The position numbers and the translations under genes are program-made. Below are positions 38,752-39,149 of a stretch of DNA of 64,000 nt, piece by piece. Under the pieces are notes generated by a model that saw only the letters and a list, made by a program, of their open reading frames with translations, was not told the origin of the DNA and did not search any database. Origin of the DNA: Escherichia phage Pu-Krd-SF1; the sequence record PQ249395; one strand, given 5' to 3'. How positions within the stretch are numbered: the first letter of the stretch is position 1; every line of letters starts with the position of its first letter.

Positions 38752-39149
38752 TTTATTGGAGATTCACTGCCTTAGTGTGAGCTAAAATCGAGGAGCCGTC
38801 GAACTGTCTGATTAATGATTTGCGAATCATTATAGTTTTAAGACCCCGGCAGTTTTACGGTGTACCTCTTGAATGTTATTCTTATAGCGGCAAGTGCATG
38901 CTACCCCGAGGTGATGGCTAATCGGGAGTACGCCTCAAGGCCTATATATCCATCAGTATATATCTTATCCTCGAGAAATCGAACCCGGAACCTTTAAGCT
39001 AACGGTGTGCAACAGATAAGAGCTATAAGGTATGATGACGGGTTTATGGTTATCCTGGTCGTTAAATATCCAAAAACCTATGTTCCCCTTGAGGGCTTGC
39101 GCAGGCAATGCCAATAAGTCCTGCATTTTCATTTAAAAGAGAATTTATA

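Follow-up and report, generated by a model that had tools for sequence, protein, structure and literature searches.

A structured non-coding RNA cassette in the gap between rIII and gene 30.9 of T4-like phages

What does the gap between rIII and gene 30.9 of Escherichia phage Pu-Krd-SF1 contain? In the window, i.e. the whole 64-kb stretch of DNA that was analysed and to which all positions refer, this gap extends from 38752 to 39149 in a + strand context. The genome is that of a Tequatrovirus: the region 38300-39500 has the same sequence as in Escherichia phage Pu-Krd-SF5 (100% identity), its identity with many other Tequatrovirus records is ~99%, and the gene order on the + strand is cd, 31.2, 31.1, gp31 (38020-38355), rIII, the gap, 30.9 and 30.8. 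An earlier note had described the gap as a relatively GC-rich island without any ORF of at least 60 aa, and had proposed that it encodes a structured non-coding RNA, holds a replication or packaging signal or is the remnant of a degraded gene. The description was correct in that the longest ORFs within 38752-39149 are 55 aa on the - strand and 45 aa on the + strand. Moreover, the string CCCCGAGGTGATGGCTAATCGGGAGTACGCCTCAAGGCC, which had been quoted as an example of the GC-rich sequence, is present at 38906-38944. The GC content is 0.420 in the gap and 0.459 in a 148-nt core compared to 0.358 in the whole 64-kb window; in a windowed analysis, the level of the gap was reached by 5.4% of 398-nt windows and that of the core by 2.9% of 148-nt windows. 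The GC enrichment of the gap is, therefore, real but modest. Finally, ARAGORN detected no tRNA or tmRNA in the whole 64-kb window, in agreement with the previous failure to fit a tRNA cloverleaf by eye.

In a sensitive blastn search, parts of the gap were matched by 992 phage records, which sets it clearly apart from random sequence, and in 178 of these at least 80% of the gap was covered. Many Tequatroviruses, T2 among those inspected, matched the two flanks of the gap only; Klebsiella and Enterobacter phages of other genera matched only its middle (query positions 137-271), with 92-95% identity. When the gap was aligned with T2, KP185 (Jiaodavirus) and CIP9 (Kanagawavirus), a central core was common to the distant genera, the flanks were unalignable, and T2 was without the core. 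The gap is a mosaic in which at least three conserved non-coding modules are independent of each other and vary in order by genus. Thus, it is not one element but several modules, and the structured RNA is found in its central part. The modules, which we refer to as M1, M2 and M3, are listed together with their surroundings in Table 1. The A/U-rich hairpin downstream of rIII is possibly a weak terminator after this gene; it was not flagged in the terminator scan because its stem has fewer than three G-C pairs.

Table 1. Features in and around the gap between rIII and gene 30.9 (positions are those of the window)
Feature	Position	Strand	Sequence or pairing	Evidence or remarks
rIII, lysis-inhibition accessory protein, upstream flank	38503..38751	+		ORF; named rIII in matching phage records
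A/U-rich hairpin	38813..38839	+	UAAUGAUU-UGCG-AAUCAUUA, then UAGUUUU	Read from sequence; common to T4
M1, structured RNA cassette, 149 nt	38881..39029	+		Covariance model R1, covariation, RNAalifold
M1, closing helix P0	38881-88 with 39022-29	+	CUUAUAGC with GCUAUAAG	8/8 pairs changed on both sides
M1, 5' invariant segment	38889..38904	+	GGCAAG(U/G)GCAUGCUA	Invariant columns
M1, hairpin S1	38905-09 with 38922-26	+	CCCGA with UCGGG	4/5 pairs changed on both sides
M1, hairpin P3	38943-49 with 38956-62	+	UAUAUAU with GUAUAUA	97-98% paired; 3 pairs changed on both sides
M1, long-range helix Px	38963-69 with 39015-21	+	UCUUAUC with GAUAAGA	97-99% paired; 5/7 pairs changed on both sides
M1, hairpin P4	38971..38982	+	UCGA-GAAA-UCGA	Outer pairs: 3/3 changed on both sides
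M1, invariant junction	38983..39014	+	ACC(C/U)GGA(A/C)CC...GCUAAC(G/A)GUGUGCAAC	Invariant columns
M2, candidate H-type pseudoknot	39030..39083	+		Directly after M1; also in T4; alignment A6
M2, helix h1	39037-39 with 39058-60, plus 39041-42 with 39054-55	+	GAC with GUC, plus GG with CC	A6
M2, helix h2	39048-51 with 39075-78	+	GGUU with AACC	A6; GGUU in loop enclosed by h1
M3a, small hairpin	39085..39095	+	CCCC-UUGA-GGG in motif GU(A/U)CCCCUUGAGGGCUU	Conserved across genera
M3b, hairpin	39101..39124	+	GCAGG/CCUGC, then AUUUUCAUUU	Just upstream of 30.9 ribosome-binding site
Gene 30.9, 58-aa basic protein, downstream flank	39150..39326, ATG 39150	+	 	ORF; annotated 30.9 in T2 and T4
Intrinsic terminator after 30.9	39330-39351			Terminator scan

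A covariance model, R1, which was built from alignment A4 (below), had a single match in the 64-kb window (182.7 bits, 38879-39032) and no match in T4 or T2. T4 reads CTTGAATGTG followed by AATGATGACGGG, and the boundary between the two is exactly the site where the window carries M1; T2 has an unrelated ~45 nt at this site. Because the core is common to distant genera with unalignable flanks and because the site is empty in T4, we conclude that M1 is a discrete cassette.

The M1 core matched 410 phage records, 394 of which with at least 80% of the query covered, and the hosts of these phages belong to Escherichia, Klebsiella, Shigella, Enterobacter, Yersinia, Salmonella, Citrobacter, Serratia, Raoultella, Erwinia and Edwardsiella. 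M1 is spread over at least 10 T4-like genera, and in Jiaoda-, Kanagawa-, Moon-, Marfa-, Muldoon- and Mosigviruses and others its core is 84-95% identical with flanks that cannot be aligned. Identity with the window copy is 81-90% for M1, including its variable helix P0, compared to 66-75% for rIII and 68-76% for gp31. By this measure, the conservation of M1 exceeds that of the adjacent protein genes.

In the inspected records of what we refer to as the first subfamily, M1 is located between rIII and 30.9. A second subfamily, with a diverged M1, occupies a second locus in ~20 records of the Pseudotevenvirus/Slopekvirus type (GAP161, a Pseudotevenvirus; CYPEBC003 and mtp5, Slopekvirus type), and Yersinia phage JC221 also carries a diverged copy; its site in GAP161 and JC221 is the interval between uvsY.-2 and uvsW.1/uvsW, the latter being transcribed convergently. 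Nearly every record has M1 in a single place, the exception being Klebsiella phage 17-11, in which the copy is split by an inversion.

For wider homologues, metagenomes and 185,579 bacterial and archaeal species genomes (one genome each) were scanned for an invariant 16-mer, and viral contigs were scanned for a gapped motif. Most matches were due to chance; those confirmed by model R1 were all contigs that are T4-like in size and similarity. No bacterial copy of M1 was found among the 185,579 bacterial and archaeal species genomes using invariant motifs and filtering with model R1. Two matches were rejected as homologues, i.e. one in Salmonella, which is inside an Rhs-type coding sequence, and one in Enterobacter, which is an isolated 16-mer. 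Similarly, M1 had no blastn match in 5,426 complete E. coli genomes, a search that is blind to matches shorter than ~20 nt and, thus, to short seed-type complementarity.

In the public records inspected, M1 is either absent from the annotation or overlain by doubtful ORFs, one of which is labelled '1,4-alpha-glucan branching enzyme'; short ORFs annotated over the M1 region include COW86c_228 and a 47-aa minus-strand ORF in KP185. No description of M1 was found in the searchable literature, including searches with the exact invariant motifs. M1 was likely overlooked because it is missing from the reference phages T4 and T2.

How is M1 folded? We compared 27 distinct copies for helices, using a MAFFT alignment (A4), as well as a model-aligned set with 38 distinct rows (A5), and identified the five helices P0, S1, P3, Px and P4 (Table 1). 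In A4, 93.9% of 1024 cells are standard pairs, and both-sided changes are present in 23 of the 38 pairs, in a set of related sequences in which a small number of lineages (PS2, COW86c, EcS1 and the second subfamily) account for the deeper changes. None of 500 shuffles of A4 reached the observed paired fraction or covariation score. In A5, 94.9% of cells are paired with both-sided changes in 25 of the 38 pairs. By contrast, when the 3' partners were slid by 1-3 columns, only 26-49% of cells were paired (26-48% in A4). Moreover, RNAalifold recovered P0, S1, P3, Px and P4 without a supplied structure. The single-sequence minimum free energy of M1 is not exceptional (z = -1.0); therefore, the evidence for the structure is comparative and not thermodynamic.

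The individual helices vary in sequence and keep their pairing. P0 is different in almost every lineage and retains pairing throughout (UAAAC/GUUUA, CAUAC/GUAUG, AAUUGUAG/CUACGAUU and CAUAUUAC/GUAGUAUG). Px, which stacks on P0 and encloses P4 as well as the invariant junction, occurs as CUCA-UC/GAUGAG, UUCUAUC/GAUAGAA, UUCGUG/CACGAA and UCCGUG/CACGGA. P3 has the variants AUACA/UGUAU, AUUCA/UGAAU and AUGUA/UACAU, and P4 the variants CCGA/UCGG, CUGA/UCAG, CCA/UGG and UUGGGA/UCUCAA, with U.G intermediates present. S1 is found as CUCUA/UAGAG, CCCAA/UUGGG, CCUGA/UCAGG, CCGAU/AUCGG and UCGAU/AUCGA. The latter helix replaces an inverted repeat, CCGAGG/CCTC, that had been pointed out in the earlier note: this repeat is unsupported as a pairing, and CCCGA pairs with UCGGG instead. 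CCGAGG/CCTC was also rejected as a pseudoknot stem (S2), since only an invariant GG/CC is common to all sequences and it competes with the well-supported S1 and its local extension.

Approximately 50 columns of M1 are invariant, including GGCAAG-GCAUG near the 5' end, GGCCUAU, ACC-GGA-CC and GCUAAC-GUGUGCAAC, and a 16-mer in the junction is exact in all members. In the 5' segment, GCAU (38896-99) may form a pseudoknot with GUGC (39007-10), or the segment may fold into a local hairpin, GGCA/UGCU; these candidate pairs never vary. A short nested helix between CCG (38985-87) and CGG (39003-05) is a further candidate, and one C-G to U-A double change was present in the second subfamily. The pseudoknot, in the form GCAUGCU x GGUGUGC, and the nested CCG x CGG both fit all sequences, in columns that hardly vary. 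Altogether, the invariant junction nucleotides probably form tertiary or pseudoknot contacts.

At paired positions, G.U or U.G combinations occur 65 times compared to 12 for A.C or C.A. This asymmetry fits only an RNA from the + strand, to which the flanking genes belong at either locus. Across the members of M1, all six frames contain stops and indels that are not multiples of three. The ORFs in the gap had no match in PHROGs and, in Pfam, a single sub-threshold chance match to BA14K (E = 0.034; 14.6 bits compared to a cut-off of 26). In Rfam 15 (4227 families), no family matched over M1 at E-values up to 10, neither for the window nor for four diverged members; the weak matches to Atu_C8 (31 bits compared to a threshold of 50) and Phe_leader were rejected, as they correspond to the terminator of 30.9 only. 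In total, these observations establish the existence, borders, strand, fold, conservation, non-coding nature and distribution of M1; among the three original proposals, covariation and RNAalifold strongly support the structured RNA in the central 149 nt.

M1 has no recognizable transcription signals of its own. The promoter scan of 38300-39500 gave sites only at 38528 and 39381, none of which is in or adjoins M1, and inspection by eye for a sigma-70 promoter, a MotA box or a late promoter directly upstream of M1 revealed nothing consistent across genera. Similarly, the terminator scan detected no G+C-rich hairpin with a U tract in M1. With respect to base-pairing sRNAs, M1 has invariant unpaired segments, no promoter or terminator of its own was found, and sites complementary to its invariant loops were not detected within the 64-kb window; a target was found neither there nor in the blastn search of the E. 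coli genomes. The closing helix of M1 starts 4-6 nt past the stop codon of rIII in L025 as well as in two Citrobacter phages, Merlin and Moon (L016, L017), which implies that M1 and rIII would be co-transcribed there.

What, then, could M1 do? With slightly more confidence than doubt, we favour the reading that M1 represents a new structured non-coding RNA family that is co-transcribed with the upstream gene and constitutes an autonomous module, probably acting in trans. According to this reading, M1 would be made as part of the message of the upstream gene, i.e. rIII here and the uvsY operon in other genera, would be processed, and, as a compact nuclease-resistant RNA, would outlast the decay of the mRNA. 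Our best guess is that it would act in trans by binding a partner that evolves slowly, which could be a small ligand, an RNA machine or a protein of either the host or the phage. The self-contained closed fold, the two unrelated loci, the single copy per genome, the clean absence from T4 and T2 and a sequence constraint in excess of that expected for a hairpin roadblock all point to an autonomous RNA module, and M1 is most likely such a module rather than a regulator of a neighbouring gene. M1 is accessory because T4 and T2 do well without it.

A bolder version of this reading is that M1 is a new functional RNA class with an activity of its own, as a decoy or a ribozyme, that is carried as a movable accessory 'RNA gene'; we consider this version tentative and doubtful. 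As a decoy, an aptamer-like M1 might bind and neutralise either an immune signalling molecule or a factor that is conserved in enterobacteria. If true, an accessory RNA gene that aids infection in some hosts would explain why M1 is nearly invariant across genera and yet dispensable in T4 and T2.

Alternatively, M1 could be a cis-acting leader, i.e. a riboswitch or a protein-binding operator, that controls 30.9. The five covarying helices and the ~50 invariant columns make up a multi-helix fold with invariant junction nucleotides that is aptamer-like, and in the first subfamily M1 is always upstream of 30.9 and on the same strand. However, a consistent position in a 5' UTR with an expression platform was not found; rather, M1 is present at two unrelated loci, and no expression platform overlaps its 3' strand. 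In the second subfamily, M1 comes last in the uvsY operon. Its upstream neighbours in GAP161 are uvsY.-2 and a 47-aa ORF, and ~145 nt downstream of M1 a bidirectional terminator faces uvsW.1, with no plausible ORF in between. Because nothing is encoded downstream on the M1 strand before this terminator, M1 of GAP161 is not the 5' leader of a particular gene. Even in the first subfamily, 55-200 nt together with the modules M2 and M3 separate M1 from the start of 30.9, and M2 can be on either side of M1. Finally, 30.9 is expressed in T4 and T2, which are without M1, and no riboswitch family of Rfam matched. Altogether, we regard control of 30.9 in cis as unlikely.

Equally unlikely, in our assessment, is that M1 functions as a stability element in the 3' UTR, blocking 3'-to-5' exonucleases and in this way protecting the rIII or uvsY message. 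Such an element could be expected where M1 is found, since it directly follows the upstream stop codon in several genera and is in a 3' UTR at both loci, and the tight closing helix would suit it. By contrast, a simple hairpin would suffice for this purpose; the ~50 invariant unpaired nucleotides and the 84-95% identity across genera exceed the needs of a roadblock, and the two loci have unrelated upstream genes.

By analogy with known ribozymes, M1 might be a new self-cleaving or self-processing ribozyme that cuts a polycistronic transcript. Small ribozymes are common in phages. The size of M1, its likely pseudoknotted compact fold and its invariant junction nucleotides are ribozyme-like, and it is embedded in longer transcripts without a promoter of its own. 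However, no known class was matched in Rfam at E-values up to 10, each genome has one copy, and no candidate cleavage site was found, which makes this function quite improbable.

Could the conservation instead reflect a signal at the level of the DNA, i.e. a replication origin, a recombination or packaging site or a protein-binding site, as had also been proposed for the gap? The T4 origin oriF is at uvsY, the neighbour of the second M1 locus, and the cassette-like gain and loss suggests recombination at the borders of M1. The predominance of G.U compared to A.C where positions are paired, however, speaks against a purely DNA-level signal and fits only an RNA from the + strand; moreover, compensatory changes retain the pairing while the sequence shifts, and iterons or repeats were not found. 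A DNA-level signal is, accordingly, highly improbable. Finally, we dismiss as extremely improbable that the gap is a decayed protein-coding gene, the third of the original proposals, or a small unannotated one, since, despite the short ORFs in some public records, there are stops in every frame in some members as well as indels that are not multiples of three, no conserved reading frame and no protein family match in PHROGs or Pfam beyond the sub-threshold one to BA14K, and the substitutions are compensatory and not codon-like.

Covariation was also observed in the remainder of the gap between M1 and 30.9. M2 contains two crossing helices, h1 and h2, and an A-rich loop, which is CGUUAAAUAUCCAAAA in the window and is also given as CGUUAAAUA. 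Helix h2 comprises 4 bp in the window and in T4 and 7-9 bp in other genera, where it is found as UUAGUAGUU/AACUACUAA, UUGUGAG/CUCACAA and GUUGGUU/AACCAAC. In alignment A6, 86% of cells are paired and 7 of 9 pairs are changed on both sides, compared to 31-57% paired in shifted controls. Helix h1 is 100% paired with both-sided changes in 2 of 3 pairs; h2 is 79% paired, on an imperfect MAFFT alignment, with both-sided changes in 5 of 6 pairs. With crossing helices that are both supported by covariation, M2 is a candidate H-type pseudoknot. M2 is downstream of M1 in Tequatrovirus, JS98-type, Merlin/Moon-type, COW86c and EcS1 phages and upstream of M1 in Jiaodavirus, Kanagawavirus and PS2.

The small hairpin M3a varies as CCUC/GAGG and CCCC/GGGG, and its motif is also present near M1 at the uvsY/uvsW locus. 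The hairpin M3b corresponds to a second inverted repeat pointed out in the earlier note, GCAGG/CCTGC (39101-05/39120-24). This repeat is a genuine covarying hairpin, the equivalents of which are GGGAGC/GCUCCC in KP185 and GGAAC/GUUCC in CIP9; however, it belongs to a separate module that adjoins 30.9.

Few viruses have been studied as thoroughly as T4-like phages, which are also widely employed for phage therapy against E. coli, Klebsiella, Enterobacter, Shigella and Yersinia. An RNA that exceeds nearby proteins in conservation, has a complex junction and moves between loci as a unit likely has a specific role during infection. M1 is directly testable, as there are natural phages that have the cassette and others that lack it, with a clean difference at the site. 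Moreover, M1 provides genome annotators with a new RNA family model, and the gap shows that intergenic regions of T-even phages harbour several shuffled structured modules.

How does M1 compare to known systems? In T4, rnaC and rnaD (species 1 and species 2) are stable RNAs that are excised from longer transcripts and for which no function is known. According to the T4 annotation, they are, like M1, non-coding RNAs of a T-even phage and have a length of 119-139 nt. However, they have no similarity to M1 in sequence or structure, and model R1 had no match in T4 69000-76000, the region that includes rnaC, rnaD and the tRNAs. Moreover, rnaC and rnaD belong to the tRNA cluster and the end of rnaC is a tRNA-like T-arm, whereas M1 has no tRNA-like part and follows rIII or uvsY.-2; T4 has rnaC and rnaD and is without M1. 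The leader of the gene 32 mRNA of T-even phages forms a compact H-type pseudoknot. It resembles M2 only, which likewise has two crossing covarying helices in an intergenic region of T-even phages; by contrast, the sequence and locus of M2 are different, and M2 is not consistently located before a given gene.

PeSL (promoter-early stem-loop) cassettes are short. They have been described as mobile regulatory cassettes of T4-type phages (PMC2839356, PMC4122927) and share with M1 that they are small non-coding modules at the borders of genes, in the variable parts of T4-type genomes, with changes in presence and position between related phages. By their name and by the titles of these papers, however, PeSLs consist of a stem-loop (terminator) and an early promoter, whereas M1 has 149 nt, five helices and no promoter-like site. 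The 2014 PeSL paper makes no mention of rIII or 30.9. M1 was rejected as a PeSL cassette, as it has neither a promoter-like site nor a terminator-type hairpin. Finally, M1 resembles the orphan structured RNA motifs of phages and bacteria of the type collected in Rfam in being an intergenic multi-helix junction with covarying stems and invariant junction nucleotides; it differs from these in that its occurrence is confined to T4-like phages of Enterobacterales, its sequence conservation is unusually high and it is not linked to a single downstream gene. In total, we conclude that M1 is a new family within a known broad kind, i.e. the structured non-coding RNAs encoded by phages.

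Directly 3' of M1, the 149-nt structured RNA cassette in the non-coding stretch between rIII and gene 30.9 (the gap), lies the module M2 (Table). Compensatory changes were found in both helices of M2, and the module is kept across T4-like genera and is also carried by T4 itself; its position relative to M1 varies between genera, 5' of M1 in some and 3' of it in others.

Two short non-coding motifs also accompany M1. The GU(A/U)CCCCUUGAGGGCUU hairpin motif, which in the window precedes the covarying GCAGG/CCUGC hairpin immediately 5' of the 30.9 start, is also present beside M1 at its second locus, uvsY/uvsW, in the Pseudotevenvirus GAP161 (comparison sequence L243, 2705-2722); in COW86c and EcS1 it precedes M1. 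The GGGCTT(T/G)C portion of this motif loosely resembles a MotA box and, on this likeness, could be part of a middle promoter. The second motif, GGUGAUU.GCUACCNNAGUGCG, was found repeatedly near M1 with a placement that differs between genera, i.e. 5' of M1 in the window, KP185 (Jiaodavirus) and CIP9 (Kanagawavirus), and 3' of M1 in the Yersinia phage JC221.

Features in and around the gap (window coordinates unless a comparison phage sequence, L002 or L007, is named)
Feature	Position	Remarks
Late-promoter-like TATAAATA	38356-38363	between gp31 and rIII
Short conserved non-coding motif GGUGAUU.GCUACCNNAGUGCG	~38770-38795; L002 ~1955-1990; L007 ~760-790	
M2	39030-39083	candidate H-type pseudoknot with A-rich loop (CGUUAAAUA...)
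Hairpin motif GU(A/U)CCCCUUGAGGGCUU, then covarying hairpin GCAGG/CCUGC	39085-39124	
Gene 30.9	39150-39326	very basic 58-aa protein
Rfam match to Atu_C8	39282-39365	31 bits vs threshold 50
Strong intrinsic terminator GAGGACUCC-UUCG-GGAGUCCUU + U tract		3' of gene 30.9
Early-type promoter TTTACA-17-TAGTAT, with TG	39381-39409	upstream of 30.8

The central coding sequence of gene 30.9 (TCTAAACGCGCTGGCTACAAGCGTGGGTCGAAC) is nearly invariant in nucleotides across genera, and a Pfam search with the protein gave no match. Because 30.9 is present in T4, where M1 is missing, we conclude that 30.9 is not an obligate partner of M1. Atu_C8 is a Rhizobiales sRNA; the match was rejected as a homologue, as the matched region is only the strong intrinsic terminator after gene 30.9.

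In some public records, the gap carries the label '1,4-alpha-glucan (glycogen) branching enzyme' or is filled with short hypothetical proteins placed on one strand or the other (records matching 38752-39149 include MZ170040, PQ030847, KY290975, PP597396 and OM337877). These labels look like annotation artefacts overlying the RNA.

In the Klebsiella phage vB_KpnM_17-11 (L008, 692-922), the 3' half of M1 is inverted and lies ~90 nt past the 5' half, which reflects either a true inversion destroying the RNA or an assembly error. At the exact M1 site, T2 has an unrelated ~45-nt segment (TACTATCATGCGTCAGAAAAGTGTTATCTGTGTAAGTCTTGGTG; L004, ~1640-1690) while T4 has almost no sequence, and because of these differences this site seems to take alternative inserts.
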